64,000 bases of DNA from Sedimentisphaerales bacterium (lineage in GTDB: Bacteria > Planctomycetota > Phycisphaerae > Sedimentisphaerales > SM23-30), in assembly GCA_963666285.1 (NCBI GenBank), contig OY762711.1; one strand, written 5' to 3'. This document shows positions 10,280 through 32,621 of this stretch, one piece after another. Made by a program: the position numbers and the translations under genes. The notes below the pieces were generated by a model. It made no database searches and was not told the origin of the DNA. It saw nothing but the letters and a program-made list of their open reading frames with translations. Numbering within the stretch: position 1 is the stretch's first letter; each line of letters begins with the position of its first letter.

Positions 10280-10362
10280 TTTATTATCCTCAAAGTTGCG
10301 GAGCTCTCCAAAGAGAGCCCCGCCTCAGAAATAACATTTGGCCTATCGCCGTTGTTTTTACT

Positions 10363-10818: not shown

Positions 10819-10919
10819 TTTTTATATCTCCGTTAAAAGAGTTTTAATCATATATTAAAGAGTGTTTTCTCCCTGCCGGGATAGTTTCAAAACAATCACC
10901 AAATTTAAGCCGCTGTCAA

Positions 10920-12287: not shown

Positions 12288-12327
12288 AATATAACTCCTG
12301 TTATTTAATTTACTATTCAAGCTGTTG

Positions 12328-15518: not shown

Positions 15519-15525
15519 CCTTGCA

Positions 15526-16854
15526 TTAACCGCACATTAAAAGCTCTACCTCGCAGCCGCAATCGCTGGCCATCAGAGCCAGGGCACCTGCCCAGAATCT
15601 ATCGGCATGACCATCCTTGGTCCGCTCAGCATCAAACCGCACATTATTAGCGGCGGTCACTAATTTCTTAACACTATGTAAATCATCTCTCAAAACTCTG
15701 TCATTCGGAATCCTTACAAGCCTGTCCTCAAACTTGCGTTTCATCCTGCCAGCCAAATCCTGCTTGGACGGATTAGTAAACTTGACACCTTCAGCTCGGC
15801 TCTCACCCAAAAAGTCAACAACATCTTCTGCCAGGTTATCGCCAAGTCCGGTGCTATCGATACAGATCCTTTCAATATTCCATTTCTTCATGACCTGGAA
15901 TATCACCGCCTTCTGGTCTTTATACTTAACCTTAGGCAGCGTCAGGATCAGCCTGGTCCAGAACACATCACCGATTTGTTCCATAACCCACAAGACTGCT
16001 CTATCTCGAACACGGCCAACATCGTAACCAGCATAAAGCGGACCGTGCGGAGTGAAGTTATAAAGATCAATATCAAAATCTTCATATTCGATCTCGTGAG
16101 GCAGCTGTATATCGTAACAATGTTCGATCAGGTCATAAGTCAGCCAGGCAGAGGCATCATCAATAAACAGACATTCAAACTCCTGCTGCCAGGCATCGGC
16201 ATCGTCGATACCTTTTTTAAGCTCATCAATGTTATGCTCAACGCCATCTTTAACAGCCTGGTAAATGTCAACGAAATGCTTACTCCATCCGTTATCATTA
16301 TTCCATAGGCTGGCAAACTTATTACCCTTGCCCTGCGGTGTTGACACAACCCTAACCTTGTAACCCTTGGAGACGGTCGGAAACATCGCACGCCAGATCG
16401 CATCAGAATCCTTGTGGAACGCAAACTCGTCCAGAATAACATTAGCGGTAAAGCCACGAGCTGTATCCGGATTCGCTGGCAGGCCAATAATCCTGGCACC
16501 ATTCGGCAGCCACGCTGTCAGCATAGTGAGCTTGGTATCCTCGAAGTAATCGATCTCCATGCTTTCAGCCGCCATGCCGCACGCCTTTAAATGAGCGTTG
16601 ACCTTTGCCATCAGCTCTTTGCTCTGACGCTCACCGGCACTGAGCAGCACCCAGTCATTTCCAGTTTCAATCGCATCCAGTACAGCCTCAAGCGAAACCG
16701 CAAAGCTCTTACCGATCTGACGACACATCAGCCCGATCTTAAACCTGCTATCATCAGCCAGCCATCGCTCCTGATAGCCGTACAAGCCAACCGCACCTTT
16801 TTTCTTTCTCAAAGGTTTTACAGGCTCGCTAAGATCTCCGGCAGGTACAATCAT
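15526..16854 (-). CDS. Terminase large subunit (Mu gp28-like)
   Basis: YQ, RQIGKS, PDTARG, ILDEFAFH, STPQG, GYDVGR..D, IDSTGLG, HADRFWA. Confidence 0.95.
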   Translation of the reverse strand: MIVPAGDLSEPVKPLRKKKGAVGLYGYQERWLADDSRFKIGLMCRQIGKSFAVSLEAVLDAIETGNDWVLLSAGERQSKELMAKVNAHLKACGMAAESMEIDYFEDTKLTMLTAWLPNGARIIGLPANPDTARGFTANVILDEFAFHKDSDAIWRAMFPTVSKGYKVRVVSTPQGKGNKFASLWNNDNGWSKHFVDIYQAVKDGVEHNIDELKKGIDDADAWQQEFECLFIDDASAWLTYDLIEHCYDIQLPHEIEYEDFDIDLYNFTPHGPLYAGYDVGRVRDRAVLWVMEQIGDVFWTRLILTLPKVKYKDQKAVIFQVMKKWNIERICIDSTGLGDNLAEDVVDFLGESRAEGVKFTNPSKQDLAGRMKRKFEDRLVRIPNDRVLRDDLHSVKKLVTAANNVRFDAERTKDGHADRFWAGALALMASDCGCEVELLMCG

Positions 16855-16884
16855 TAAGGTGTCAATCCTCTATTCACTTGTTAA

Positions 16885-17157
16885 TTATGCCGGGTAAAAT
16901 TCCAAAAACTTGTCATCTAAAACACTGTGTTTTGGTATTTCCACCGAACGTTCTTCTATCTTATTTTCAAATAGATTCCAGTCGCTAGCTAAATATTGAC
17001 GACGAAACTCATCCATATCCAAGTTCTCTCTAATCTCTTCTGCAATACTTTTCCCATTACCAACAGGCTTAATAAATATCGCATCAGCAGGCGCAGCTGC
17101 AATTGCTCTGGCAGTTTTACCGACTGATCTTGATTCAACTTTAATCAACGATGCCAT
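16885..17157 (-). CDS. Hypothetical protein
   Basis: 90 aa ORF overlapping upstream gene. Confidence 0.5.
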   Translation of the reverse strand: MASLIKVESRSVGKTARAIAAAPADAIFIKPVGNGKSIAEEIRENLDMDEFRRQYLASDWNLFENKIEERSVEIPKHSVLDDKFLEFYPA

Positions 17158-17704
17158 AGATCTGCTCCTTAATAGCCTTCAATACTTCAGGACTGATTTC
17201 TTTCTTATATGTTTTTTCAATCTTCTCTGCCGCCGCCTTCGCCTTCTCCTCCACCTGCTGCCTGACATACTTATCAGAAGCAATCGCAACCTGCGTGCAT
17301 TCTTTGGCACACCTGGCAATATCTTTCAGCTCCAGGGCACTAAAGCTATCAGCATCGCTCACCAGCTCAATCAGGTGAGCTGTTATCATCTCAGCTGCCG
17401 CCTTTTGTGTCTGGCTGGCCTTCTCACCGTCCATCCCCTTCATCGTCTCACGAGCGATCAGCCCGGCGTTCCTCATCCTGGTCAAAGCTTTAACCCGCTG
17501 ACCGTACCTGCCCATCGCAGATTCTGAGATCTTATGCCCTTTAAGCTCGCAATAATTTACGCAATCGATATAGCGAGGCTTACCGATCCAGTCATCATCC
17601 GGACAGAACCCATCCGGCCAGACACCATCAATCAGCATATCATCGATAGTTGTCTTAACCTCAACTGGCAGCTTTTCAATTGTAGAATGTGTTCTTCTGC
17701 TCAT
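17141..17704 (-). CDS. Mu gp27/DUF3486-like protein (putative terminase small subunit)
   Basis: STIEKLP..ISESAMGRYG..IKEQIYGI pattern; upstream of terminase. Confidence 0.8.
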   Translation of the reverse strand: MSRRTHSTIEKLPVEVKTTIDDMLIDGVWPDGFCPDDDWIGKPRYIDCVNYCELKGHKISESAMGRYGQRVKALTRMRNAGLIARETMKGMDGEKASQTQKAAAEMITAHLIELVSDADSFSALELKDIARCAKECTQVAIASDKYVRQQVEEKAKAAAEKIEKTYKKEISPEVLKAIKEQIYGIVD

Positions 17705-17710
17705 GGGTGC

Positions 17711-17992
17711 TTATATCTCCAACGCCGGATCATCGATCAAGTCATCTGCAATTTCCTTCCCTTTAGCGGTCAGGATATACAGCTTCTCACCGTAAACATC
17801 GATCTCCCTTACATACCCCTTATCGACCAGGTACGCCAGGTCGCGGTTAAGCAAGTCATGGCTATAACCGTGCGGGTCAAGCTCGATCATAGTCCTATAG
17901 ATTATGTTCTTCTTCACCCTCGCCGGGTAAGCATCGTTAAGTGCCGCCAGTAGATCGTTTCGGGCCATCTTAATTTTTTTTCGATTGTCCAT
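17711..17992 (-). CDS. Mu gp26-like winged-helix protein
   Basis: LNRDLAYLVDKGYV..LTAKGKE; synteny with gp27-gp28; start uncertain. Confidence 0.7.
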   Translation of the reverse strand: MDNRKKIKMARNDLLAALNDAYPARVKKNIIYRTMIELDPHGYSHDLLNRDLAYLVDKGYVREIDVYGEKLYILTAKGKEIADDLIDDPALEI

Positions 17993-18323
17993 TCCAGTCC
18001 TTAACCTCATCTAAGACGTTCTTGGTTATCTCACCAACCATCCGAGGCAGCTTCTCGAATAGTCCAACACTTGTTTTAATTTCTGTTAGAGTCTCCTGCA
18101 GCTTCTGCATCGCCTGTCGGTTAATCGCCGCCTCGCGCAGATACTGTTCAATGCCGACGAAATTCTCGTTACAGTTCAGACGACATTGAGCCTGAGCTTT
18201 ATCCAGCTCATTGGTTCTATCTTCAACTCGTGTTATCCTGGCATCCATTTTCTTAATCTGCCAGATAATCACTCCGCCGACAACGCCGGATATTATCGAT
18301 GGTAACAACGTCACAAAATCCAT
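17970..18323 (-). CDS. Membrane-anchored coiled-coil protein (Mu gp25-like position)
   Basis: N-terminal TM helix then coiled coil; synteny. Confidence 0.55.
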   Translation of the reverse strand: MDFVTLLPSIISGVVGGVIIWQIKKMDARITRVEDRTNELDKAQAQCRLNCNENFVGIEQYLREAAINRQAMQKLQETLTEIKTSVGLFEKLPRMVGEITKNVLDEVKDWNGQSKKN

Positions 18324-18325
18324 AC

Positions 18326-18384
18326 ATTCGTGCCTATTCGTGTGAACCCTGCACTGTACGGTGCAAGGGGATTCGTGGTTAAAA
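18326..18384 (+). repeat. ATTCGTG decamer repeat element with TGCAC..GTGCA hairpin
   Basis: Near-identical to copies at 24124-24183 and 24965-25024. Confidence 0.85.
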
Positions 18385-18463
18385 TTTCTTGCCGTTCAAA
18401 CAAAATTTGGCGGAGCAGCAACAAGCTACCCCGCCTCGAAAGGATCTTCAACAGAAAAAGATA

Positions 18464-19147
18464 TTATGCTGTATTGGGAGTAGCCGTCGATAGCTTAACC
18501 GCCTGGACCTTATTCTCTCTCACCAGTGCCTCGGTACCCGCCGTCTGGTTCGCTTTCTGGTAATCCTTGAACCGATCGACCAACGCCGAATATCCGCTCT
18601 GTTCCAGCTCTGCAATAAACCCGTCATTAGCCTGCACAACTTCCTTAACCGCCGTCGCCGCCTGGCCGGCTTTCTTAACTGCTGTAACTATCCCACTGCT
18701 GCCCTTGAGCACCCCGGCTCCGACAAGAGCCATCGCCAGTGATCCGACCACACCTAGTCCCTGCTCAACCTGTTCGACAACCTCTTGCGTCTTTGGTCGC
18801 TGTGCAGCATCAAATTCCGCCTGTGCCGTTACCGTTTCATTCGTTAAAATATCTATATTTGATGTGTCGGGAATCGTCTCCGGCGGCCCGTAATACGTGA
18901 CAATCGCATCAGCCTGTCTTTCCGCATTATCAGCCAGCCTTCCTGATATTGGAGGCAGCTTTTCTCCTGCAACCAGCTTGCCGATCTGTCCGGCCAAAGC
19001 TTCAACAGTTTTCTTGTGAATTACCGCTGATTCCTTTTGAGCCTCGGTTGGTGCCAGACGCAATTTGTCACCGCAACCGCTAAGAAATACCAGGGAAATA
19101 ATGCATACCAGCATCAATAGAAATGAGCCAAAACCCGTTTTAATCAT
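18464..19147 (-). CDS. Phage lipoprotein (possible lysis/spanin-like)
   Basis: Signal peptide with LSGC lipobox, second hydrophobic segment; first gene of late operon; AGGAG RBS. Confidence 0.6.
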   Translation of the reverse strand: MIKTGFGSFLLMLVCIISLVFLSGCGDKLRLAPTEAQKESAVIHKKTVEALAGQIGKLVAGEKLPPISGRLADNAERQADAIVTYYGPPETIPDTSNIDILTNETVTAQAEFDAAQRPKTQEVVEQVEQGLGVVGSLAMALVGAGVLKGSSGIVTAVKKAGQAATAVKEVVQANDGFIAELEQSGYSALVDRFKDYQKANQTAGTEALVRENKVQAVKLSTATPNTA

Positions 19148-19213
19148 AGCTTAAACTCCTTTTTAAGCAATGTTAAAGCAGCATCATGCCGCCGTTTAAC
19201 GGGCTGTAAACAT

Positions 19214-19262
19214 AAAAAAAAGCCCGTATGCTAAAGTTAATATCAACTCAGTCACACGGGCT
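19214..19262 (-). terminator. Intrinsic terminator-like hairpin in late-operon leader
   Basis: Minus strand AGCCCGUGUG...CAUACGGGCU followed by U-tract. Confidence 0.75.
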
Positions 19263-19327
19263 GTATTGCCGTAAAAAATTAAATTGTTTTGAGCTAGGCC
19301 GTCACGCCATCATCGCTCGACATATAC

Positions 19328-19356
19328 CATTATCGGCTATCCCACCGAATTGTCAA
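19328..19356 (-). promoter_or_regulatory. Putative late promoter
   Basis: Minus strand TTGACA-16-GATAAT; contains GCCGATAA. Confidence 0.5.
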
Positions 19357-19573
19357 CACCTTTTTTTTTCTTAACCACGGATGAACGCAGACTCACACTG
19401 ACACACAGAGGATCCAGCAGAAGTAGTGCATTACTAAGCATTATATCACTGCCGGCCAGGAACCGACTGATAATTGACCGATTAACCCCGGATAACTTCT
19501 CAAGCTCTCTATAGCTGACCTCGTGCACTTCAAGCTGCTCTTTAACTAATTGCCTGATCTCTTCTATATCCAT
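19337..19573 (-). CDS. Small XRE-type HTH protein (Aca-like position)
   Basis: SYRELEKLSGVNRSIISRFLAG; start taken at ATG 19573. Confidence 0.8.
   Translation of the reverse strand: MDIEEIRQLVKEQLEVHEVSYRELEKLSGVNRSIISRFLAGSDIMLSNALLLLDPLCVSVSLRSSVVKKKKGVDNSVG
19367..19401 (+). repeat. 35-bp direct repeat, copy 1
   Basis: tttcttaaccacggatgaacgcagactcacactga; 34/35 identical to 20791-20825. Confidence 0.95.
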
Positions 19574-19653
19574 TTTTTTCACCACGAATAAAAACGCCCC
19601 GGCACCGTCGCGCCAGGGCAAAAAAACCTGTACCGCATGGCACAAGGGAAAGG

Positions 19654-19995
19654 TCACTTTTTTTCTCGCTCGAGCTGAAACAGCACGTTACTGTACATTG
19701 CTCTTGTCTGCGGAGTGTTAGCCAGCTCCACTCTCTCTAGCCACCGGAAGTAGATTTCCGCTGTTCCAGTGCATATATACGGCATCTGCCCGGCTTCTGA
19801 TAATAGTTCGGCGATTCGGTCGAACATCTGGCAATGTATCTCATAGGGCATCTCGTCAGCATCGCTGTAAACAGCGTTATAATCGTTCTCGCTCTGCCAG
19901 TGGACAATTGGAATAACGGTAGGACTGCCGCCTTGTTTGGCGACAACCCCCATAATATAATCAAATCGCTCTTGAGCTAACTGTTCAATGTTCAT
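19654..19995 (-). CDS. Small acidic hypothetical protein
   Basis: 113 aa, AGGAG RBS. Confidence 0.7.
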   Translation of the reverse strand: MNIEQLAQERFDYIMGVVAKQGGSPTVIPIVHWQSENDYNAVYSDADEMPYEIHCQMFDRIAELLSEAGQMPYICTGTAEIYFRWLERVELANTPQTRAMYSNVLFQLEREKK

Positions 19996-19996
19996 A

Positions 19997-20308
19997 TCAC
20001 TCTCCTGTCATCTTATTCCATAAGCCTCGTTTGGCGGTATTCTCTTTGTTTGTCACGCCATCTTTCCAGGCATCATAATCGCAGCCGCAATCGATGAAGC
20101 TTGCCAGCTCAGCTTTAAGTCTATCTTTTTTGTTTTGTTCGTTAGGGTAAGAGAAGCCGCCATTTACGAATAAGTCGAAGTATATATTAATTCTGCGATC
20201 ATCTAGTTCTGGGCCGCCAATTAATAAGTTGTTATCGGCTTCTACGGTTTTAACAAAATTTAATTCTTCGCTATATCTTTTTTGGAACTCGTTCATTTTT
20301 ATCTCCAT
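19997..20308 (-). CDS. Small acidic hypothetical protein
   Basis: About 100 aa; start 20308 or 20296. Confidence 0.7.
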   Translation of the reverse strand: MEIKMNEFQKRYSEELNFVKTVEADNNLLIGGPELDDRRINIYFDLFVNGGFSYPNEQNKKDRLKAELASFIDCGCDYDAWKDGVTNKENTAKRGLWNKMTGE

Positions 20309-20353
20309 TATTTCAAAAAAAAATTATGCCCCGGCTAACCAGGGCTTGAATTG

Positions 20354-20590
20354 TTAGTTAATAATTCTACCTTGCTCACCTGACCATGCAAACCTGTCAC
20401 TGTTGGCTTTTGCAGCTTCAATAACGGCAACAGGAATAGCTTCGACGACGAAGTCAGGACAAACTGCCATATTAACACCGTTGTGCACCATAGGCCTGTC
20501 ATTAGCATCAAGCATGACTTTATTGCGTTTACCAGCTTTAAATTCTTCTGCGATTCTGTTCCATGTTCTTGTCTTGGTTGTTTTTTTCAT
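20354..20590 (-). CDS. Small hypothetical protein
   Basis: 78 aa from ATG 20590 after AAGG RBS. Confidence 0.65.
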   Translation of the reverse strand: MKKTTKTRTWNRIAEEFKAGKRNKVMLDANDRPMVHNGVNMAVCPDFVVEAIPVAVIEAAKANSDRFAWSGEQGRIIN

Positions 20591-20655
20591 TTTCTTACCT
20601 TTCCGGCCCGTCGGCCATTTTGTTTTTTCTGAGGCCCCTTGCCTCATCTACCTAT

Positions 20656-20687
20656 AATATACCACAGTGGTTGTGTCAATGCAACCA
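20656..20687 (-). promoter_or_regulatory. Sigma70-type promoter with overlapping inverted repeats
   Basis: TTGCAT-17-TATATT with extended -10 TG; TGGTTG-N8-CAACCA (20668-20687) and ACCACAGTGGT (20661-20671). Confidence 0.7.
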
Positions 20688-20790
20688 TAAAAGCAAAAAA
20701 TATTTTCCCCATTCGTGCATATTCGTGTTAATTCGTGGTTAAATAAAGACTTACACTGCAAAACTTTTTCGTAAAATTTCGTGGCTTCTG

Positions 20791-20825
20791 TTTCTTAACC
20801 ACGGATGAACGCAGATTCACACTGA
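20791..20825 (+). repeat. 35-bp direct repeat, copy 2
   Basis: Matches 19367-19401. Confidence 0.95.
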
Positions 20826-21632
20826 TCAAAAATCTACAGAAGACTCCAACGCCTTTTTATGATCTAGTTCTACCCAGAGCTTAGCCCCAGCAAAATCATA
20901 TCGAAAAAAATAACTTGATCGCTTATATCTTACGCTATTGTGAGGGTAAGACCTATCATTCCATCTTTTTGTGCTTTCGACCCATAAATTATATTCATTC
21001 GGAAAGATATCCAATGCAACTCTTGCTGCATCTTCCGTTTTACAATTAGCCCACATGAATCCCATGTGATCTAAAACAAGCCCCATTCCAGTGCCGTCCA
21101 TCTTCCAAAAGCTAAAGACTTTGCAGCCATTATCGGCCTCGAAATCGAGCCTAACAGTGCCGATACAATCTTTGTTAACATTATAACCCTTTGATTCAAC
21201 ATGCCGCTTGAACTCATTGTAACTCATGTAAACAGGTTCGGTCGATGGCAAAGCTGTCCAGCCAACATCATAAATAGAAATACTGCCATTATAGATGCTT
21301 TGTCGCAATTCATCATAGCTTAATTTCAACAGATCAACCTTACTGGTTGTCGATTCTAGTATCACTCTATTGCTTGATTCAACAAGTTCCTGGTTTATCT
21401 CTTGCAAGGCCTTTACTTGCTTCATGCGGTGTTTATCCCCAAATTGAAACCCGGCAATACTGCCAACCAGAAGAGTAATTATAGCAATGATAACAACCAT
21501 ACCCGAATTGCTCTTTTTGCCTCCTGGAACAATATTTTCAATCTCGCAAACCGGGCATTTCAGAGACTGCCCAACCAAAGATTCAGGTGCTTCCATCTGC
21601 TCTTTACAGCGTTTACACTTAAAATATACCAT
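20826..21632 (-). CDS. Zinc-ribbon, single-TM membrane protein (moron-like)
   Basis: CKRC..CPVC, TM helix, C-terminal soluble domain. Confidence 0.75.
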   Translation of the reverse strand: MVYFKCKRCKEQMEAPESLVGQSLKCPVCEIENIVPGGKKSNSGMVVIIAIITLLVGSIAGFQFGDKHRMKQVKALQEINQELVESSNRVILESTTSKVDLLKLSYDELRQSIYNGSISIYDVGWTALPSTEPVYMSYNEFKRHVESKGYNVNKDCIGTVRLDFEADNGCKVFSFWKMDGTGMGLVLDHMGFMWANCKTEDAARVALDIFPNEYNLWVESTKRWNDRSYPHNSVRYKRSSYFFRYDFAGAKLWVELDHKKALESSVDF

Positions 21633-21948
21633 AACTCACACCTCATTTTCTGTTAAAATCTATATAATTTAATAACTCAGAAATATTTTTTAGAAATTTT
21701 CTGCCTTATTATATATCGGCAGTATCTTTATCAATACTGATATCAAAATTATTATCAGACCTGCAAGCACTCACATAATAAATTGTAAAATATATACTTG
21801 TGTTGCATTAAAAAAACATTAAAGTTTTTATATCTGGACTAAAATGATTCACTCATGAAAAGTTGGGGGTTTGCTATGGAAAAAATTGAAACTAATACAG
21901 ACGTAAAAAAACATAAACATTACGATCTAGTAAAAGAGCTAATCAAAC

Positions 21949-22197
21949 CTATAGCTCTCCAGATTCTTTTAGATCTAAAATCACCTGCCGTACTAAAGGC
22001 ACAAGAGAATTCGAGTCATCAAAACCGCCAGCCATAAGTGCTGTCTGAACCTCAGCAGGTAATTTAATCCAAAACTTTGCAGCTCCCTCAACAGCTCTTT
22101 TTTTTATATAGCCACGTTCTTCAACCTGGAGATCAAACGCTTTTATCACCTCAACGTCAATATCTCCACCAAAGTTTTTCTTTTTTTTTCCTGTCAT
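21949..22197 (-). CDS. Putative repressor, ribbon-helix-helix-like
   Basis: KKNFGGDIDVEVIKAFDLQVEERGYIKKRAVEGA strand-helix-helix pattern; divergent from early operon. Confidence 0.6.
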   Translation of the reverse strand: MTGKKKKNFGGDIDVEVIKAFDLQVEERGYIKKRAVEGAAKFWIKLPAEVQTALMAGGFDDSNSLVPLVRQVILDLKESGEL

Positions 22198-22207
22198 ATC
22201 TTAATTA

Positions 22208-22335
22208 TTCTCAAGTTCTTATGAGTTTTCAACGCATTTATCCTTGAGTTTTCTTGATTTTTCTTGATGTTTACGTTTGACACATTCCGATAAGGGTGTT
22301 AATATTCACTCAAGATTACTCAAGATTTCTTGATA
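22208..22335. promoter_or_regulatory. Divergent switch region with operator-like repeats
   Basis: CTTGA at 22243/22253/22263/22329, TCAAG at 22211/22310/22320; TTGACA-17-TAATAT from 22277. Confidence 0.7.
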
Positions 22336-22354
22336 ATTAAATATAGAGATCAAT

Positions 22355-22552
22355 ATGGCAAGAGCAAAAACAGTAAAAGCTATCACATTATCAAGCAACG
22401 TCTATCCAGAATTGATAGAACTGGCTAACGAAGCTGCCAGGGCTGAAGAGCGTTCCGTTCACGATCTTGCAAATCGTATTCTCACGGCAGAATTTCAGAA
22501 TATTATCAACGCCCATCGTCAATCTATCACTAACAAGAAATCAGCGAGTTAA
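22355..22552 (+). CDS. Arc/RHH-like regulator 1
   Basis: VKAITLS..LIELANEAARAEERSVHDLANRIL. Confidence 0.7.
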   Translation: MARAKTVKAITLSSNVYPELIELANEAARAEERSVHDLANRILTAEFQNIINAHRQSITNKKSAS

Positions 22553-22555
22553 TTT

Positions 22556-22735
22556 ATGTCAGACGAATATGTAAAATCCGTCAGCTTCAACCACGATACA
22601 GACCCCGGCATCATCGCCCTGGCCAACGAAGGTGCCAGGTCCGCCGGTTGCAGTGTCGCTGAATTCGTCCGCCGCGTCCTGACAGCCGAGCTGCCTCGCT
22701 ACGCACCAAATAGTAATATCAACTCAGTCCTATAG
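22556..22735 (+). CDS. Arc/RHH-like regulator 2, paralog of preceding gene (59 aa)
   Basis: Below ORF-track cutoff; MSDEYVKSVSFNHDTDPGIIALANEGARSAGCSVAEFVRRVLTAELPRYAPNSNINSVL aligns with the 22355 protein. Confidence 0.75.
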   Translation: MSDEYVKSVSFNHDTDPGIIALANEGARSAGCSVAEFVRRVLTAELPRYAPNSNINSVL

Positions 22736-23241
22736 CGGCTGAGTAAAAAACACCAGGCAGCGTCACCTGCCTGGCATAAATATAACCGGGCACGGATAGC
22801 CCGCAAAAATAATTACGGAAGGACTTGTTATGACCGCAAAAAACTTAAAACGCATCGGCATCGCCGAAACCATAACTCTTCACTCTTCACTCTTAGTTCT
22901 TCACCCAGCAAGGTTTCATCCTTCATAATTCATAATTCATTCGAATCTGCCTCCCCCGGTTCTTGCCGGAACGATTTAAAGCAGGCAGGGCAACTGGCGA
23001 GCTTGCCACATCCGTTCGCCACATATAGTAACTAACTTTGACAAGTAAATATAGACAGGTTCCAGTAGCCAGGTTTCAGGTTCCAGTGAAGACATAAAAT
23101 CAGCTTCGCCGAAGGCGAGACCTTCCCTAACACCTAATACCCAATACCTAACACCTGTTAAATCGACCTCCTTTTTCAAAGCGGCGAGCTCAACGCACTC
23201 GCCGGTAAACGTGGGGCCGGGGCGGCAGGGACGCTGCTCAA

Positions 23242-23697
23242 ATGGTTAAGGACGACCGCCCGGCCAATTTTATTATCCTGGCAGCTGACAGCTCATCGCT
23301 CGAAGCTAATCAAAACTTAAAACAGATTTTCAAAGAACAATACAACTATAGCACCGGCAGTTTATGCCGGGTAGATAAAAATAGAATGAATTTTATACCG
23401 TACATGATAATCACAATTATTACAACAGACCAAATCGGAGCGGTAGCCTTCGAGCTAGTCGAAAGACAGACCATGTCGGCTGCAGATGCTATACAGCAAA
23501 TCCAGGCAGTCGCCCTCGTAGGCAGCTCCGATTCTTTAGATCTCGACTCAATCGAGGCGATGTTGGCAGAGACTTACTCCGGTCAACGGGCAAACAACGA
23601 TCACTCCTCAGGCCAACCGCCTCACTTTGTTAATAACGTGACAATGCACACATTTTTGGATATCACAACTCAATGGCTCAAGCTCGCTCCGGATTAG
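23242..23697 (+). CDS. Hypothetical early protein
   Basis: ORF; true start probably later (23386 or 23404). Confidence 0.45.
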   Translation: MVKDDRPANFIILAADSSSLEANQNLKQIFKEQYNYSTGSLCRVDKNRMNFIPYMIITIITTDQIGAVAFELVERQTMSAADAIQQIQAVALVGSSDSLDLDSIEAMLAETYSGQRANNDHSSGQPPHFVNNVTMHTFLDITTQWLKLAPD

Positions 23698-23885
23698 CTG
23701 CCTGCCAGTAACCTTATGACGATCAAATTAAGATGAGCGATAGCGACAACCGGCCCTTATGCCTTATCCCTTATCCCTCATCCCTGAATTCATTAACCAT
23801 GTTACTATTGTTAAACATTAAGTATAAGCCGCTGTCGGCGGCGTAGCCGACAGCTTTTTTCAAAAACACTAAACCACAGATAAAC

Positions 23886-24116
23886 ATGCCAGAAATAAAA
23901 AATGGACAACCGATCAGAATCGACGATCTATCAGAAGTATTATCTGTATATCTTGCGATCAACGTAGGTTTAACAAGCAGAGGCGAACCAATGTGTAACA
24001 CTTGCGGAGCAATAGCCAAAAGAAAAAAAGGCAATCATTTCAAAGATGTCTCACATGCCAAAGGTTGTTCCGCTATCAAGGCGGTAGAAATCGCAAAGAT
24101 CCTTGACGAATTATAA
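23886..24116 (+). CDS. Small putative Zn-binding protein
   Basis: CNTC...H...C. Confidence 0.6.
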   Translation: MPEIKNGQPIRIDDLSEVLSVYLAINVGLTSRGEPMCNTCGAIAKRKKGNHFKDVSHAKGCSAIKAVEIAKILDEL

Positions 24117-24123
24117 ATTAATA

Positions 24124-24214
24124 ATCCGTGTTAATCCGTGTGAACCCTGCACCGGATGGTGCAAGGGGATTCGTGGTCCAAAAAAACAATCATCAAAGAA
24201 CAGGAAACTTAAAA
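24124..24214 (+). repeat. About 90-bp direct repeat, copy 1 (includes RBS)
   Basis: Near-identical to 24965-25054. Confidence 0.9.
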
Positions 24215-24217
24215 CAA

Positions 24218-24490
24218 ATGTTACACGCAAGCGACAAATATAATGGCCGCATTATCGACAAGGAAGGATTGATCCCGGCTGATGAACCGGTGTTCTTGTT
24301 ACGAGCGCAGGACCCATTATCGATCGATCTACTCGAAGACTATATCGAGAAACTGGAACAGGAACTGGACGAGCGGGTACCTAACATTACAGATGACAAC
24401 GTACAGAAGCTGGACGATCTCAGACCTCACCTTGACCGTTTTCGAGATTGGCAAGCATTGCACCCTGATAAGGTAAAACTTCCAGACTAA
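24218..24490 (+). CDS. Hypothetical phage protein (DEPVFLLRAQD motif)
   Basis: ATG 24218 after AGGA; upstream extension in ORF track is repeat DNA. Confidence 0.7.
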   Translation: MLHASDKYNGRIIDKEGLIPADEPVFLLRAQDPLSIDLLEDYIEKLEQELDERVPNITDDNVQKLDDLRPHLDRFRDWQALHPDKVKLPD

Positions 24491-24494
24491 TATT

Positions 24495-24758
24495 ATGAGC
24501 AAATTCAACAAAATGAAATCAGATTTTCAAAACTGGATGGACAACAAACTAGAATCCAGGCAGCTGAAAAACCTTAACCGGCATACTTCTATCTGCCTCG
24601 ACCTGGAACGCAAGGAACCGTTCAAGATCAAACAGATAAAGCCTGATTCGATTTGCAGCTCTGAAACCAGTATCAGTTTCAACGAAGCAACCGCTAAACA
24701 GCTTTACGATTTCCTGGAAGAGCTATTCAGAGAAGAGGAGGTCAGCAATGGCAAATGA
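24495..24758 (+). CDS. Hypothetical early protein
   Basis: 87 aa coupled ORF. Confidence 0.6.
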   Translation: MSKFNKMKSDFQNWMDNKLESRQLKNLNRHTSICLDLERKEPFKIKQIKPDSICSSETSISFNEATAKQLYDFLEELFREEEVSNGK

Positions 24759-24972
24759 TATTATTTCAGATGACGCTTGGCTATATTTTATCGATAGATG
24801 GTTGCATCCGAGTAGGCCAACGACTGCCCTGGTGTACAGAATGATGATCCTTGAAAATAAAACATATAAACATGATTGGAAAATCCCATCATTGTCAACC
24901 ATGTACAGGTTAATCGAAAATCGTATTTCAAAAAAAACTCAGAAATATTTCCGTAAAGGAATTTATTCGTGA
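24748..24972 (+). CDS. Stand-alone Mu transposase I-gamma-like DNA-binding domain
   Basis: Aligns by eye with an internal segment of the 26667 transposase; GGAGG RBS. Confidence 0.75.
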   Translation: MANDIISDDAWLYFIDRWLHPSRPTTALVYRMMILENKTYKHDWKIPSLSTMYRLIENRISKKTQKYFRKGIYS

Positions 24973-25054
24973 CCATTCGCGTGAACCCTGCACCGGATGG
25001 TGCAAGAGAATTCGTGGTCCAAAAAAACAATCATTAAAGAACAGGAAACTCAAA
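24965..25054 (+). repeat. About 90-bp direct repeat, copy 2
   Basis: Near-identical to 24124-24214. Confidence 0.9.
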
Positions 25055-25246
25055 ATGAAAGGACTATTAACAATAACAATATGTATCGCACTCGCCTGGC
25101 TGCTGGCAGCTATCGGGGTATGGCTGAACATATGTAAAAGAGACTTTACCGTAACCGGCATGATAGTAATCTTATGCCTCATCGGCATCGCCTGGGACCT
25201 GACATGCAGCAAGAGCAGCGACAACCAAGAGACTACTGGCCGATAA
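25055..25246 (+). CDS. Small two-TM membrane protein
   Basis: Two hydrophobic helices; RBS inside repeat. Confidence 0.6.
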   Translation: MKGLLTITICIALAWLLAAIGVWLNICKRDFTVTGMIVILCLIGIAWDLTCSKSSDNQETTGR

Positions 25247-25452
25247 TCAACCGGCTCTACGCTGCCGGTAAGCAACTGACCTGGCCGGAGCAATGCTTCA
25301 TCAGCCAGTGCAATATAGCCCGCCAGACATACGGTCATGCCATGCAGCTCAGCGATAAGCAGTTTGACTGGCTCGACAGATTAAAAGAAAAATACGAACA
25401 CTTAATAAAGGATCATCATGATAAACCTGGAACTAACAAACGATCAGTTTAA
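25174..25452 (+). CDS. Hypothetical protein
   Basis: LTWPEQCFI..LSDKQFDWL pattern; start possibly 25204. Confidence 0.55.
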   Translation: MPHRHRLGPDMQQEQRQPRDYWPIINRLYAAGKQLTWPEQCFISQCNIARQTYGHAMQLSDKQFDWLDRLKEKYEHLIKDHHDKPGTNKRSV

Positions 25453-25594
25453 CACAATCATGCTCGCCTTAAAGAGCGAGCTGAATCAGCACATGCGGTC
25501 AGGCAATATGCCGAAATCCGAGCAGGTTGTAGTAGATGTAATAGACACAATCGAGCAACAGGTAAAAGCTCAGGTAGAAGCAGCCGCAGCTTAA
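25418..25594 (+). CDS. Small hypothetical protein (58 aa)
   Basis: MINLELTNDQFNTIMLALKSE..., AAGGA RBS; below ORF-track cutoff. Confidence 0.55.
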   Translation: MINLELTNDQFNTIMLALKSELNQHMRSGNMPKSEQVVVDVIDTIEQQVKAQVEAAAA

Positions 25595-25664
25595 TTCGTG
25601 ACCATTCGTGGTCAAAAATATTCCCAGCAAGGACGCTGGCATAACTAATAGGAACGGACGCCTT

Positions 25665-26153
25665 ATGTTAGATAAGGACACAATTGAAGTGAGTGACGAT
25701 CATCTACTACTGAGCAATAAGCTGGAAGAACATAATATCACAGTCCAGCAGCTTTCAAACATGACAGGGCGTGCCTGCTCAACCTTATATAGATATTTGA
25801 TGGGCGGGCAAACTATTCCGTCAATCGTCTGGCGTGTTATATACCAGAAAACCAAAGACCAGGAGATCTTAAAACTTATCACTGGCGATCTGCCATTAGT
25901 AATAGCTGACATGTCGGAGATCCTGGACCCGAATTTCGGTATCCCGGAGCTCCGCAAGATCATGGAGATGCGACAGGCCCAGCTCGACAGTGAACAGAAC
26001 ATCGTTAACATTCTAGCCGATGGTAAGATAGACGCCAGCGACCGGAAAGAGATCGAGGAATATCGCAAAAACATCAAACAGCAGCTCCGCACCGAATACC
26101 AGATATATCTAACCATCGACCGTTTATACGAAAAGGCTATAAGAAATGCTTGA
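25665..26153 (+). CDS. HTH regulator, phage CII (P2/186)-like
   Basis: N-terminal HTH (VQQLSNMTGRACSTLYRY), C-terminal LADGKIDASD. Confidence 0.65.
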   Translation: MLDKDTIEVSDDHLLLSNKLEEHNITVQQLSNMTGRACSTLYRYLMGGQTIPSIVWRVIYQKTKDQEILKLITGDLPLVIADMSEILDPNFGIPELRKIMEMRQAQLDSEQNIVNILADGKIDASDRKEIEEYRKNIKQQLRTEYQIYLTIDRLYEKAIRNA

Positions 26154-26568
26154 ACAATATAATGACATTAACATACCTTGTCCAGTGGAAGATTGCGACG
26201 GGCACCTGACAGAGCCGCTCATCTGGAACAATGAAATAATTACAGGCACCGCCCCAACCCGCCGGGTTTTCGGCTCTTGTAATTGTTGCGGCTGCGACAT
26301 CAACCTGGAGCAATATCAGGCCCACCACCGCTGGTTCATCAGCCGCTATTATATCAGCGGCGAGATGGACGGCACCGGTCAGATGCCAAGCGACACTACC
26401 TGGCATGATATTCAGCCGGTCCCGAAGACCGCTGTGCTGATCCCGGTCGAAGCTTTCGAGCGGGTAGAACGTCAGCGTGAGCTTACCAAAGACCAGATCA
26501 CAAATCTTTTGGACACCTTTAAACAGACATTAACAGACATTCAAAGACTAATCAAAAATAATTTATAA
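26146..26568 (+). CDS. Cys-rich hypothetical protein
   Basis: CPVEDC..CNCC; coupled ORF. Confidence 0.6.
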   Translation: MLEQYNDINIPCPVEDCDGHLTEPLIWNNEIITGTAPTRRVFGSCNCCGCDINLEQYQAHHRWFISRYYISGEMDGTGQMPSDTTWHDIQPVPKTAVLIPVEAFERVERQRELTKDQITNLLDTFKQTLTDIQRLIKNNL

Positions 26569-26666
26569 CGGAGATAAAATGAGCCATCAGCGAAATATCA
26601 AATCAGCCCCGCCCCAGGCGGCACCTTCCCTGATGCCTTATCCCTTATCCCTTATCCCTGTATAAC

Positions 26667-28661
26667 ATGAAATACTTAACCGTAAAACAAGCAGCCGAAA
26701 AGCTGAAATTGAACGAAGGCCACATACGCAGGCTATGTGCGTCCGGCGACCTCCTGGGAGCAGCACGCAAGGGTAAAAGCTGGCAGATCCCGGTATCTGC
26801 TCATCCGGATCTGCGCGGAGCCCTGGCACCGGCAGTCAAAGACGATCCAGAAGAACTGCTCAAGGTACCGCTGCCGAAACGTCAGCAGGCAACAGAGCGG
26901 CTCGGCCTGTTAAAACAGATGGAGAAATATATCGGCGGCTATCTAAACCACGGCGGCAACCGTACAGACGCTATCGCCTGTTTCGCTGACATGCAAGGCT
27001 GCTCGGTCCGGTCGCTTACCAGATGGTCCAAGCGATATCGAGAGCAGGGCATACTTGGCCTTGTTGATGCCAGGGGCGGCAGAACCGACGACGATTCAAT
27101 TAGTCCGGAAGCCTGGGATATATTCAAGGACATGTGGCTCGACCAGCGTCGACTGAGCGTACCGACCTGCTATAAGAATTTGGTATATCTTAACCACTCG
27201 CAGCAGCAAAACTGGCAGCTCCCATCCGAGCGAAACATGTATCGTCTCATCCATGAGCGGATCCCGATGCCGGCCCAGGTATTGCATCGGGAGGGCATGG
27301 AAGCCTACAACGCCAAGTGTGCCCCTTACATAATAACAGACAGAGAGGCGATCGAACCGGGCAGCGTCTGGATCGGCGACCATCATCAATGTAACTGCTG
27401 GGTGCGAAATCAGGGCCGATGGATAAGGCCATGGCTAACAGCTTGGGAAGATATGCGTAGCCGTGCATTGGTCGGCTATTGCGTTACAGCCAGCCCTAAC
27501 CAATCAACCATCATGCTCGCCTTCAGGAAAGGCTGCCAGGACTACGGCCCGCCCGAATCGGTAAAGATCGATAACGGTAAAGATTACGATTCCCAGATGT
27601 GGACCGGCACCACAAAAAAACAACGCCAGAAAAAACGCGGCAAGGTTTTGGACGACCAGCAATGCCAGGCGATCATCGGTTTGTACGCTATGATGAATAT
27701 CGACGTAAGCTTCTCGATTCCTTACCACCCTCAGAGCAAGGCAATCGAGCGGTTCTTCGACAGCTTCGACCGTCAGCTCATCAAGTCATTTGACACTTAT
27801 TGCGGCAAAGGCACCCACGCCAAACCGGACACTCTCAACGACTACCTGAAAACGGACAAGGCCATCGCCGCCGCCGACGATCTCGAGAGCTTCGCCGCCA
27901 AGGTCGACCGATATCTAAAGGTATATAACTCTCAGCCGCACTCCGCGAACAAAGGCCAAACCCCGGCATCTGTCATGTCAACCCGTCAGAGCCGCCGTGT
28001 TATAGCCGACGGAACAATGGACCTTCTCTTACAGGTCTGGTCTGGCGAACTGACAATTGGCAAAAACGGCGTCAAGTTCGAAGGCAACTGGTACGGCCAG
28101 TTCAACCCTGAACTATTAAGACGTCAAGGCCAGAAAGTTCGGGTAAGCTACGATCCAGACGACATCACAGAGGTCCGGGTCTTCACCAAGGATTTCGAAT
28201 TTATCACAACCGCAACCCAGCACGAACTGGAGCAGTATGGCAAAGTACACCAGTCAAGCTTGCGAGAAGCTATGAAGCAGAAACGCAAAGCTGCTAAGGA
28301 TATGAAGTCATATCGCAAGACAACCAGGATCGCCAACATGCGGCTATCAGATCTGACAATCGAAGCAGCAGAGCACGCCGCTCAACTAACAGAGCAAGAT
28401 CAGCAGCAGCGAACACCACAGCCGCCAACTATCAAGCCGGTCCAGACCCCGCTCGACAACGCGGTAACAGATGTTAAACGTAAAGAACAACAACAGCAGC
28501 TACGGAAAGCTGTCGGAGCAGACACCGTCTCGGCTATCGATCTGGATTTAGATAGCCTGACCCAGCCGGTCAGCTCCTCGGAAAACTCGTTTAGCTTTAA
28601 CCTATCGGCTTTAGAGCCGAACGAAGAGCCGACCATAAGGCTTTTCGAAAATGGACAATAA
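26667..28661 (+). CDS. Mu-like DDE transposase (MuA)
   Basis: WIGDHH, IDNGKDY, SKAIERFF catalytic core; V.YDP.D C-terminal domain; N-terminal HTH domains. Confidence 0.95.
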   Translation: MKYLTVKQAAEKLKLNEGHIRRLCASGDLLGAARKGKSWQIPVSAHPDLRGALAPAVKDDPEELLKVPLPKRQQATERLGLLKQMEKYIGGYLNHGGNRTDAIACFADMQGCSVRSLTRWSKRYREQGILGLVDARGGRTDDDSISPEAWDIFKDMWLDQRRLSVPTCYKNLVYLNHSQQQNWQLPSERNMYRLIHERIPMPAQVLHREGMEAYNAKCAPYIITDREAIEPGSVWIGDHHQCNCWVRNQGRWIRPWLTAWEDMRSRALVGYCVTASPNQSTIMLAFRKGCQDYGPPESVKIDNGKDYDSQMWTGTTKKQRQKKRGKVLDDQQCQAIIGLYAMMNIDVSFSIPYHPQSKAIERFFDSFDRQLIKSFDTYCGKGTHAKPDTLNDYLKTDKAIAAADDLESFAAKVDRYLKVYNSQPHSANKGQTPASVMSTRQSRRVIADGTMDLLLQVWSGELTIGKNGVKFEGNWYGQFNPELLRRQGQKVRVSYDPDDITEVRVFTKDFEFITTATQHELEQYGKVHQSSLREAMKQKRKAAKDMKSYRKTTRIANMRLSDLTIEAAEHAAQLTEQDQQQRTPQPPTIKPVQTPLDNAVTDVKRKEQQQQLRKAVGADTVSAIDLDLDSLTQPVSSSENSFSFNLSALEPNEEPTIRLFENGQ

Positions 28662-29811
28662 CAACAACAACGACAATGAGCTTGAATATCTAAAAAAAGG
28701 ATTGTCATTAGAGCAGAATCTAATTTTGGAAAGGATTCCAAAAGTGTTCACAGAAGAAAACACAGCAAAAGCAATAGCCAACATAAGATCGTTTATGAAG
28801 GACCATTCCTTCACCAACAAGCAGCTCGCCGACCGTTGCGGCTTCAGCCAGACAACAGTCAGCCAACTAATCAACGGCAAATATCCAGGCGACACACCAA
28901 AAGCGTTAACAACTATTATTAAGTTCATGAACGCTCACTGTCGCAATAAGCTGCACCACAACGAAATGCCCGAATATGTCGAGACCTCAGTCGCTCGTGA
29001 GATCGGAGCACTCATCACCAACACCACATCCTTCAGCCAGAGCGAAGGCAAAATCGGCCTGGTTATTGGAGATGGCGGCCACGGCAAAACCCACTGCCTG
29101 CAAGCCTGGTGCAAAGTCAACCCGCACAACTATTATATCAGGCTGCATTCCTGCATGACCAACAAGGATATCATGGTAGCGATCGCTAAAACAGTCGGCA
29201 GCGATTATTCCGGCAGCATCGCTTACATAATAGATAAGCTCGCAGCGGAACTGGCCGACCGGTTTGCTGTCATAATTATTGATGAGGCCAGCAACCTCAA
29301 GGTCAAAACTCTTGACCTGCTCCGCCAGGCTATATGCCTGGAATGCGGCTGCCCGATGATTCTGTCAGGCAACGCCGCTCTAATAAAAACAATCCACAAA
29401 GATTCAGCTCGCAGCGGCTACGAATCAATCGATCAGTTTAACAGCAGAGTTATGCGAACCTTGAACCTTGACCTGGCCGCCTCAACCAGCACAGACCCGA
29501 ACACAGGTCTCTATACCGAAAAGGATATTATCGATTTATATCAATATCAGGGTATCGGACTGGCCAAAGATGCCGTCGATACCCTGCGTAAGATCTGCCA
29601 GACCCCACACTCCGGCAGATTGCGTGTCTGTGCCGATATCATCAAAGCCCTGCACACCAGCCCAGACATATACAAAGCTCAACTGATCACAGGCCAAAAC
29701 ATAATCACAGCTATTCGCATGCTGCAGCTTCCATTCGCCGACCGGCTGCCGGTCACAGTTGTCAAACCAAAACATCAAACATCCAGCCAGCAGGCCAAAG
29801 CCACAGCATAA
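28651..29811 (+). CDS. MuB-like transposition AAA+ ATPase
   Basis: HTH with GKYPGD, Walker A GDGGHGKT, Walker B IIIDEA, GRLR. Confidence 0.93.
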   Translation: MDNNNNNDNELEYLKKGLSLEQNLILERIPKVFTEENTAKAIANIRSFMKDHSFTNKQLADRCGFSQTTVSQLINGKYPGDTPKALTTIIKFMNAHCRNKLHHNEMPEYVETSVAREIGALITNTTSFSQSEGKIGLVIGDGGHGKTHCLQAWCKVNPHNYYIRLHSCMTNKDIMVAIAKTVGSDYSGSIAYIIDKLAAELADRFAVIIIDEASNLKVKTLDLLRQAICLECGCPMILSGNAALIKTIHKDSARSGYESIDQFNSRVMRTLNLDLAASTSTDPNTGLYTEKDIIDLYQYQGIGLAKDAVDTLRKICQTPHSGRLRVCADIIKALHTSPDIYKAQLITGQNIITAIRMLQLPFADRLPVTVVKPKHQTSSQQAKATA

Positions 29812-29823
29812 CAGAGGTTTAAC

Positions 29824-30318: not shown

Positions 30319-30332
30319 CGAAAGGAAGTATT

Positions 30333-31082: not shown

Positions 31083-31384
31083 ATCCGTGGTTCAAAGATT
31101 AAATTATTCGTGTCTATTTGTGTCCATCCGTGGTTCAAACAGACAAGGAGTAAATGAAATGATAACCTCAAAAGACTATCATATAAAACCGGCCACCGCC
31201 GACCAGACCAAAAACACCCAGCAAGCCGCCGCTCGCCGGGTATTACTCGAACATAACCGCCAGAAGCAACAGCGTAAAACTGGCCGTGAGCGATAGCGAA
31301 CACCTTAACTATTAGTTTTTAGTTATTAACTATTAACTTGCCAGGCGTGATGGACCACGCCGCAGCATAGAACGGAGTCTTATT

Positions 31385-32240: not shown

Positions 32241-32621
32241 ATGAAACACTCAAAACCAATCACAACCCCATCACAGCAATCCGAACTGCTGCACATCCTG
32301 CAGGCAGCCGCCGAGCCTGCGCCCGCAATCGACCTGGCCAACACCGCAGGTCTGTCCGGATCCCACGAATCCAAACGCCGCAAGGTACGTGATCTCATCA
32401 AAAAACTCCGAGACAATGGCCACTGGATAGTTGCGACGATCCAGGGCGGCTACTGGCTCACTAAAGACAAATATTTATGGCAGCAATACAACGAGCATAG
32501 ATCAATCGACGCCAAGGTTATCCTGGCTGATATCTCCCGCCGCAAACAGGCTCAGCGTGACCAGCCTCAGGGCATGCTCTTCGACGTAACTAATTTAAAC
32601 GCTATAGCAGGAGGATTTTAA
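32241..32621 (+). CDS. Winged-helix protein (possible middle/late regulator)
   Basis: RKVRDLIKKLRDNGHWIVAT..GGYWL. Confidence 0.7.
   Translation: MKHSKPITTPSQQSELLHILQAAAEPAPAIDLANTAGLSGSHESKRRKVRDLIKKLRDNGHWIVATIQGGYWLTKDKYLWQQYNEHRSIDAKVILADISRRKQAQRDQPQGMLFDVTNLNAIAGGF

Follow-up and report, generated by a model that had tools for sequence, protein, structure and literature searches.

A candidate trans-acting RNA antiterminator at the late operon of a Mu-like prophage

The window, the whole 64,000-nucleotide stretch of DNA that was analysed, carries a Mu-like prophage whose early and late operons diverge (Table 1). It has the full set expected of a Mu-like transposable phage: DDE transposase A, AAA protein B, Gam, GemA and gp27. 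The late genes run on the − strand from 19147 downward and the early genes on the + strand from 22355 upward. A 16-mer lies on the + strand both at 19238-19253 and at 22714-22729, and a genome-wide search returned exactly these two copies in 6.35 Mb; since the late and early loci are read in opposite directions, the two RNAs are therefore complementary, as the preliminary description of this DNA had stated. A REP-like host repeat was ruled out, two copies in 6.35 Mb being unlike the true repeats nearby. One other non-element exact 16-mer repeat is present in the prophage (2731/14678).

Table 1. Features of the prophage referred to in the text (positions in the window)
Feature	Position	Strand	Remarks
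First late gene, lipoprotein-like	18464..19147	−	Followed by gp27-type small terminase, terminase, portal, protease, capsid
Late-leader intrinsic terminator (predicted)	19214..19262	−	Hairpin 19262-19221 and U8 tract
Early-RNA target	19238..19263	−	16-nt core 19253-19238 (upper 5′ arm and loop) and basal extension to 19263
Late promoter, sigma70-like	19329..19356	−	−35 TTGACA, 16 nt, −10 GATAAT; probable start ~19322
Small divergent gene, candidate repressor	21949..22197	−	Role suggested by position
Early promoter	22277..22305	+	TTGACA-17-TAATAT, extended −10
First small early gene	22355..22552	+	Akin to the 22556..22735 gene (41% over 41 aa)
Small Arc/RHH-like early gene	22556..22735	+	3′ end holds the antisense segment
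Antisense segment	22714..22744	+	Toehold 22714-22721 and hairpin H1 (22722-22729 with 22737-22744)
Hairpins H2 and H3	22753-22774, 22787-22803	+	3′ of an A/U-rich linker
Mu-type transposase A and B	26667..29811	+	Diagnostic of a transposable prophage
Last early gene, winged-helix protein	32241..32621	+	Ends QG(M/L)LF; a candidate co-regulator protein for the late genes

The late promoter is the sole 11/12 match within positions 1-19400; it is kept in the related sequence G003, and its −35 box matches at no fewer than five of six positions in 46 of 54 family loci. The leader that follows contains a hairpin (19262-19221) with a minimum free energy of −22.6 kcal/mol (z −5.4; 0 of 200 shuffles), and this fold bears out the earlier claim that the 16-nt match covers the 5′ upper stem and loop. 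A homologous leader hairpin was found in all 20 discovery loci, and the U tract after it has at least five U of eight in 51 of 54 loci and is weak (four of eight) in the other three. A segment further upstream in the leader was considered as a cis antiterminator and dropped, its conservation being limited to the window and G003.

The complementary segment sits at the 3′ end of the small Arc/RHH-like early gene, whose product gave a profile match to pArc (E 0.006) and a two-helix model with Arc, CopG and NikA among its top fold matches, none of them at E≤0.001. Folding of the early RNA left the loop-complementary part single-stranded and placed the remainder in the hairpin 22722-22744, reproducing the toehold-like layout proposed from the sequence at first sight; just 29 of 50 family models leave over half of the toehold unpaired. 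U-G pairs in the antisense segment and H1 favour the + strand. The linker that follows is U-rich in the family loci (216 U, 140 A and 104 G+C), and H2 and H3 beyond it are probably a stabilising or processing scaffold, H2 having one compensatory pair between the window and G003, a comparison of two sequences that is not significant. A minus-strand terminator at 22777-22744 was rejected as a functional element, its U tract being missing in G003.

The preliminary description had cautioned that a 16-mer repeat could arise by chance, which is fair for one genome: some exact 16-mer repeat appeared in 28 of 100 simulated 36.6-kb sequences. For a fixed 42-nt hairpin the expected number of matches is about 2e-4, and chance is excluded by the homologues. 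Among 54 related prophages, 51 have their own partner 1-4 kb from the leader, one of them in a variant layout, and the partner is absent in L072, L075 (contig end) and L230. The best duplex falls at the end of a small early ORF in 47 of the 54, with three more loci keeping the same hairpin scaffold and one being the variant. The 50 loci compared have 50 distinct loops, and the cognate pair tops its row in 44 of these and outscores the swapped pair in all 25 disjoint sister pairs. Four close relatives (81-97% identity over aligned blocks) carry four different loops, each with its own matching partner, and in G003 both copies carry an identical two-base change, a further change giving G.U. Differences between copies comprise 43 G.U-compatible and 18 opposite transitions, plus 15 transversions, a bias whose p value of 0.002 is overstated, the loci being related. 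The covariation in related prophages that had been suggested as a check is thus present across about 50 loci, and sequence comparison makes it highly probable that the two RNAs are matched for pairing with each other.

Of the 20 discovery loci, 15 reached a score of at least 12, compared with 2 of 89 hairpins (terminators) from the host and 0 of 20 loci in each of three internal controls, and in a blind held-out test 19 of 36 loci were positive vs 0, 2 and 1 in the controls. Single-protein scans of viral contigs returned no homologous loci, family alignments being needed. Outside the family, 14 class-level loci of distant Mu-like prophages yielded no match of 12 or more except one edge artefact, hairpins at distant gp27 loci were matched in 0 of 17 cases, and a distant transposase set in 4 of 97, where L291 is a close family member and the match in L295 lies in coding sequence. 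No leader was found in six more close-transposase contigs (L076-L081), most of them short.

The duplex is longer than the shared 16-mer. In the window it takes in the terminator base (19263-19259), which pairs with the 3′ arm of H1 (22737-22741), and across the family pairing extends over 17-29 bp, spanning the hairpin from stem base to loop and ending there. The stem-base extension is cognate-specific and beats shuffles in 48 of 50 cases (p≤0.05 in 26). In 49 of 50 duplexes pairing goes no more than 2 nt into the terminator's 3′ arm; 3′-arm pairing as counted over whole-hairpin duplexes (mean 6.5 nt) was discarded as a signal, there being no excess over the shuffle control. The loop is paired in most duplexes, the contiguous match lying in the stem and not the loop in L061, L067 and L073, and no loop base being paired in L214. 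Median binding was −16.7 kcal/mol to the nascent leader vs −6.1 kcal/mol to the finished one (−15 to −16 vs −4.2 kcal/mol in the window), and 13 of 50 partners still bound the finished leader at −10 kcal/mol or better. These modelled energies would favour the antitermination direction, without amounting to proof, since an unfolded leader binds better for any hairpin. Equilibrium folding of the variant L097 gave a terminator probability of 0.9995 with the target blocked and 0.06 with the target free, values that would tend to speak against a relay.

We consider it likely, at a probability of about two in three judged from sequence, that the late operon is gated by a natural trans-acting RNA antiterminator, one that works as synthetic STARs do (small transcription-activating RNAs that are antisense to the 5′ side of an intrinsic terminator). 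Unlike MuC-dependent promoters, which PMC12867686 describes as having no −35 box, the late promoter carries a consensus one, and the gate would therefore be the terminator. In the lysogen the promoter would be active and polymerase would halt about 100 nt on, at the leader terminator. Induction would free the early promoter and give an RNA with the toehold and H1 at the end of the small Arc-like gene. The toehold would nucleate on the loop and upper 5′ arm of the nascent leader, H1 would open and both of its arms would pair along the 5′ arm of the terminator, which would be blocked, letting polymerase enter the packaging and capsid genes. The active species would presumably be a processed fragment guarded by H1-H3, and terminated leaders might, speculatively, also titrate the early RNA, imposing a threshold or a delay. 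Complementarity, phage-specific covariation and the extent of pairing are established by comparison of the sequences; synthesis of both RNAs, their co-transcriptional pairing and the read-through outcome we infer. Of the trans antiterminator first proposed, the RNA-RNA pairing thus stands, well supported by covariation, and read-through of the late leader is the outcome that geometry and modelled energies suggest. One point against the model is timing: an activator RNA encoded at the head of the early operon would be expected to work very early, and a hypothetical delay would be needed.

The same pairing might instead work in the reverse direction. The terminated leader RNA, produced constantly in the lysogen, would then bind the early transcript where the small gene has its stop codon, and termination, cleavage or decay of that transcript would support lysogeny or phage-specific immunity, like P4 CI RNA or StxS. 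We judge this unlikely. The finished terminator is bound weakly in net terms, pairing in several variants is largely or wholly confined to the buried stem, and the basal extension requires a completed H1 3′ arm, even if 13 of 50 partners do bind the finished leader well and pairing of the loop in most duplexes would permit loop-first binding to a folded leader. In 41 of 47 loci the early strand lacks a terminator past H2/H3, with a U-rich tract following H1 in 17 of 47, and a constitutive promoter and terminator would be left without an opener. What speaks for this direction is the rapid divergence of loops among close relatives, as for immunity determinants, together with two published precedents, terminated late leaders acting as sRNAs (StxS, PMC7547250) and antisense pairing by P4 CI RNA leading to termination (PMC4825925). 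Somewhat less likely still is control shared between both transcripts, for instance by opening a weak H1 terminator or creating a double-strand cleavage site, with a protein as the main late switch, most likely the winged-helix protein (32241-32621) or a host NusG paralogue. H1 itself may be a regulated terminator, given the U-rich linker and the presence of at least five U of eight directly after it in 17 of 47 loci, but the window has A6 at this point and G003 one U of eight. The conserved winged-helix gene that closes the early operon could be the real late regulator: it was found in 14 of 20 discovery loci at the Q or C position, and its QGxLF tail resembles the clamp-binding motif of Mor/MuC. 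However, its product matched none of the Mor, C or Q families, and its fold matches are NiaR/BirA-like with none at E≤0.001. A second NusG-family gene occurs in four of five hosts, although the NusG matches of G000 lie outside the prophage, and no protein explains phage-specific base complementarity.

Very improbable is an explanation at the level of DNA, either operators for a phage protein, akin to the shared protein-binding site named in the preliminary description, or repeats for recombination or conversion. The copies do form a direct repeat on the same strand and Arc-like proteins are encoded at the locus, but the repeat varies freely between phages and yet is matched within each, and this phage specificity, with the excess of G.U-compatible changes (43 vs 18), disfavours a common binding site. 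The repeat is non-palindromic; its late copy lies 65 nt or more past the −10 box, and its early copy 400 nt away from the promoter of that operon. It sits within RNA hairpins at both loci and shows G.U polarity, and an internal loop offsets the basal extension, an arrangement that is sensible only as an RNA duplex.

Returning to the antiterminator, its nearest likeness is to STARs, which are synthetic and function as engineered, and of which 10.1101/022772 says that natural small RNA activators of transcription were unknown at its date. Here too, on paper, a trans RNA can pair with the 5′ side, and not the 3′ arm, of an intrinsic terminator that fold and U tract predict upstream of the regulated genes, and the phage pairs resemble orthogonal STAR/target pairs in being sequence-specific (44/50; 25/25). 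The prophage RNA differs from those in that paper in being natural, lying inside the 3′ end of a coding gene, being mostly folded in a hairpin and covering the loop as well. A literature search, with most subscription journals outside its reach, turned up no natural case of an intrinsic terminator being overcome by a trans antiterminator and nothing on these prophages. If the favoured reading is right, a natural RNA activates transcription in trans, by invasion of an intrinsic terminator, which we found described only as an engineered device, and phages have a new route for the early-to-late switch; novelty of mechanism is limited to natural systems and hinges on direction. Under the reverse reading it would be a new variant of phage antisense control, and the RNA pair would still be undescribed. 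The natural variants would offer ready compensatory controls and candidate orthogonal activators.

In pT181-type attenuators, an antisense RNA from the target locus promotes termination in a mobile element, and HK022 put is a cis-acting, processive antiterminator RNA that works without protein. P4 CI RNA (PMC4825925) is likewise an antisense RNA controlling termination in a mobile element, but it promotes termination and is encoded on the target locus, same or opposite strand, whereas the prophage partner lies 1-4 kb away and is predicted to prevent it; canT of Tn916 (PMC11658703) is RNA-based, protein-free antitermination in a mobile element that acts in cis and processively, whereas the prophage RNA would act in trans by sequence-specific pairing. 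In T-box control (PMC7430163) a trans RNA also decides termination at an intrinsic terminator, but tRNA is read by shape and short pairings and an antiterminator is stabilised, in place of 17-29 bp paired with the terminator arm. Rfam release 15 (T-box, C4, CI-like, put and others) searched over 17000-27000 gave four matches, all at E≥1.5, far below gathering scores and none at either site. With rpoS sRNAs and SraL (PMC6582626), trans base pairing in a leader permits read-through, but by blocking Rho, whereas the prophage target is an intrinsic hairpin and Hfq (PF17209) was found in 0 of 5 host genomes (88-98% complete).

The layout recalls lambda pR′-tR′-Q with StxS as described in PMC7547250: a constitutive late promoter, short leader, intrinsic terminator and an opener from the early operon. 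No Q gene was found, however, and the opener predicted for the prophage is an RNA that works at a single terminator, in place of a protein acting processively; PF06530 and PF03589 were found in 0 of 5 host genomes, with positive controls detected, and no scanned window protein matched any Q family. The prophage shares with Mu (PMC12867686) the transposase, B, GemA, Gam, gp27 and a last early gene with a clamp-motif-like tail, but differs in having no Mor/C match, a consensus −35, a leader terminator and divergent operons; Mor (PF08765) was found in 0 of 5 host genomes. We think it fairly probable that in this phage lineage a protein late regulator (Q or C) has been replaced by an RNA in the 3′ end of the first early gene, a natural STAR with at least 50 key-and-lock pairs that prevent cross-activation of the prophages' late genes. 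Profile scans of the window proteins gave no family match for the product of the small divergent gene (21949..22197). TCAAG-type repeated boxes surround the early promoter and, by eye, resemble repressor operators.

Most of a Mu-like transposable prophage, with no second element of its kind in the 6.35-Mb genome, lies in the window. Its early (+) and late (−) operons are divergent, with the late promoter, cargo genes, a candidate repressor and the early promoter lying between them. The preliminary description had reported a 16-mer shared by the late leader and the end of an early transcript. Both copies are present on the + strand where it placed them, and nowhere else in the genome; since the two loci are oppositely transcribed, their RNAs are complementary. 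Its structural layout also held: by folding, the late copy occupies the 5′ upper arm and loop of a terminator hairpin (−22.6 kcal/mol, 0 of 200 shuffles as stable) followed by eight U, and in the predicted early RNA fold the first 8 nt (the toehold) are unpaired and the remainder lies in hairpin H1. The early copy overlaps the final codons of a 59-aa gene with a weak Arc-like match, and H1 is followed by H2 and H3. Rfam contained no family matching either site. Because 28 of 100 simulated sequences of prophage size contained some exact 16-mer repeat, the single case is suggestive only, a caution the preliminary description had itself raised.

Coordinates of features in the window
Feature	Position	Strand	Remark
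Late promoter	19356-19329	−	sole 11/12 match in 1-19400
Late-leader terminator hairpin	19262-19221	−
16-mer, late copy	19238-19253
First late gene	18464-19147	−
gp27-type small terminase, terminase, portal, protease, capsid	from 19147 downwards	−	late operon
Strongest hairpin below leader	18435-18409	−
TCAAG/TTCTTGA repeat cluster	22200-22340
Early promoter	22277-22305	+
Small gene, 59 aa	22556-22735	+
16-mer, early copy	22714-22729
Toehold; H1; H2; H3	22714-22721; 22722-22744; 22753-22774; 22787-22803	+
Terminator-like hairpin	23831-23854	+
74-aa gene	24748-24972	+
Transposase A, B, GemA, Gam	26667-31888	+	Mu-like early-side genes
Last early gene	32241-32621	+	conserved; winged helix, NiaR/BirA-like (weak); C-terminal QG(M/L)LF
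Tail genes	32833-36281	+
REP-like repeats, first list	18326, 19362, 20786, 24124, 24965, 31110
REP-like repeats, second list	23097, 23749, 26600, 32156, 36312

Related prophages, labelled for example Anaerohalosphaeraceae, Sedimentisphaerales or Phycisphaerae, were collected in two sets. A gp27 search of 401 genomes of the order gave matches in 25 genomes (29 places), from which 20 regions were taken, leaving out the window, the same-genus genome G003, one short contig and the six weakest gp27 matches; 18 of these (two with another layout being excluded), the window and G003 formed the discovery set of 20 loci. A blind rule, the best hairpin with a U tract 0.9-2.6 kb before gp27, recovered the homologous terminator in all 20, that of L075 being second best and picked by hand. 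The partner score, taken as the best antisense run to the hairpin 5′ arm plus loop in the 5 kb upstream, reached the cut-off of at least 12 in 15 of 20 loci; 2 of 89 host hairpins did so, and none of the 20 in any of three internal controls. Metagenome and viral contig scans yielded 160 further loci, 55 with adequate identity and flank, and removal of 19 redundant loci left 36 held out for scoring (L160 duplicates L147). With the rule unchanged, 19 of 36 scored at least 12 (controls 0, 2 and 1) and 25 at least 10.5; the rule chose a non-family hairpin in six, of which a wider search rescued five, L217 being the exception.

Across the combined loci the leader has its own partner in 51 of 54 (51 of 55 counting L217), none being found in L072, L075 (contig end) or L230. 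Terminator and partner lie 960-4060 nt apart, with duplex energies of −31 to −46 kcal/mol, and in 47 of the 54 a small early ORF has the best gapped duplex at its 3′ end. Three loci (L060, L108, L173) have the same hairpin scaffold and L097 a variant. In L073, L161 and L222 the scaffold follows small genes unlike the Arc-like type, that of L073 reading like an HTH/Ner-type protein, which suggests that the RNA module persists when the accompanying small gene is replaced. The pattern was not seen in the distant Mu-like phages examined; within the data searched, it therefore seems restricted to this clade.

The covariation check that the preliminary description had proposed came out in favour of pairing. 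The comparison covered 50 direct pairs, no two of them sharing a loop, with gp27 identity of 28-93% (median 49%). The cognate partner beat one swapped from another phage in all 25 disjoint sister pairs and was top of its row in 44 of 50; in 49 of the 50, no other site came closer than 3 kcal/mol to the partner duplex. In four close relatives (81-97% identity across aligned blocks) the loop differs each time and has a matching partner in its own phage, and two loci removed as redundant from the held-out set turned out to be such loop variants. The G003 prophage, whose transposase is 72% identical to that of the window, carries an identical two-base change in the loop region at both sites, which replaces one residue of the protein encoded by the small gene; a further, third difference gives a G.U pair. 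On neutral scoring, differences between the DNA copies were G.U-compatible in 43 cases, opposite in 18 and transversions in 15 (15, 7 and 4 in the discovery set alone), although the P value of 0.002 for the G.U-compatible excess is overstated because the loci are kin. This excess and the phage-specific matching fit an RNA duplex rather than an operator, which makes the shared protein-binding site once offered as an alternative, with the copies acting as DNA sites, very improbable. By these comparisons, conserved, phage-specific RNA–RNA complementarity is almost certainly what joins the two sites.

The most probable role of the pair is that of a natural antiterminator acting in trans on the late operon, and we put at roughly two in three the probability that the early RNA acts in trans to block the leader terminator. 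Pairing of the H1 3′ arm with the terminator base outdoes that of shuffled sequences in 48 of 50 pairs (P≤0.05 in 26) and is cognate-specific (0 of 20,000 permutations); in 49 of the 50 the duplex reaches no further than 2 nt into the terminator 3′ arm, and pairing there does not exceed that of shuffles. As pairing runs from stem base to loop only, the partner covers the first-emerging RNA and nothing past the loop; for L061, L067 and L073 the uninterrupted match is in the stem. Net binding has a median of −16.7 kcal/mol to the nascent leader and of −6.1 once the leader is finished; for the window the maximum is −15 to −16, weakening to −4.2. A contrast of this kind is expected of any hairpin. 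The finished leader is bound well by 13 of 50 partners, and only 29 of the 50 models leave most of the toehold open. L097 has two tandem leader hairpins, the early RNA matching the first, ∼60-100 nt upstream of the leader terminator, and the 3′ arm of the first can pair with the 5′ arm of the second; this match suggested a relay, with which equilibrium folding at full length did not agree.

The reverse direction, in which the terminated leader RNA acts on the early RNA as modelled by StxS (PMC7547250) and P4 CI (PMC4825925), appears unlikely, and two-way or protein-led control somewhat less likely still. Mor/C, Q (two families) and Hfq had no match in any of five host genomes, with positive controls. 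MuC promoters are described as having no −35 box (PMC12867686); the late promoter −35 matches at least 5/6 in 46 of 54 loci, and 31 of the loci reach 10/12 or more for the promoter as a whole, 9/12 matches being frequent by chance. On the protein side, the QGxLF tail of the last early gene product resembles the clamp-binding motif described for Mor/MuC (PMC12867686), and this winged-helix protein could be a co-regulator of late genes or, possibly, an unrelated late regulator using the sliding clamp. Below the leader a simple scan of the late strand listed only short or weak-tailed hairpins, so antitermination by the early RNA, opening one site, may suffice.

The predicted design is that of synthetic STARs, small transcription activating RNAs that open intrinsic terminators in trans, whose 2015 preprint described no natural sRNA transcription activators as then known (10.1101/022772). 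Natural trans-RNA antitermination in the papers covered is Rho-directed (PMC6582626) or, in T-boxes, tRNA-read (PMC7430163), and canT, unlike the trans action predicted here, works in cis (PMC11658703). One review states in general terms, with no example alongside, that antisense RNA may induce an antiterminator; another counts antitermination as one of the things that sRNAs do and names STARs as an engineered case. The literature covered, including few subscription journals, contained no natural trans antiterminator of an intrinsic terminator and no paper on these prophages. The RNA pair is real and, in that literature, undescribed.

Several other features of the prophages were observed. TCAAG/TTCTTGA repeats, likely operators of small Arc-like proteins, cluster around the early promoter, where G003 has different repeats. 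Two families of short REP-like repeats are scattered through the prophage, one repeat lying just upstream of the late promoter. A strong terminator-like hairpin lies inside the early operon, 3′ of the antisense segment, and the product of the 74-aa gene consists of just a Mu transposase I-gamma DNA-binding domain, with 33% identity to the transposase of the same phage. Homologues of the first late gene occur in 42 of the 61 related genomes searched, many more than have this prophage, and the gene possibly belongs to a host-shared lipoprotein family. Three extra contigs (C2-C4) of genome G000 have near-equal sizes (65.6, 65.6 and 66.6 kb), and the related prophages L063 and L070 carry transposase and gp27 on one strand. 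Tail tube-like, tape-measure-like and adjoining structural genes stand at the early-strand end, apart from the head genes; G003 shares this arrangement, as do L058 and L073 in part.
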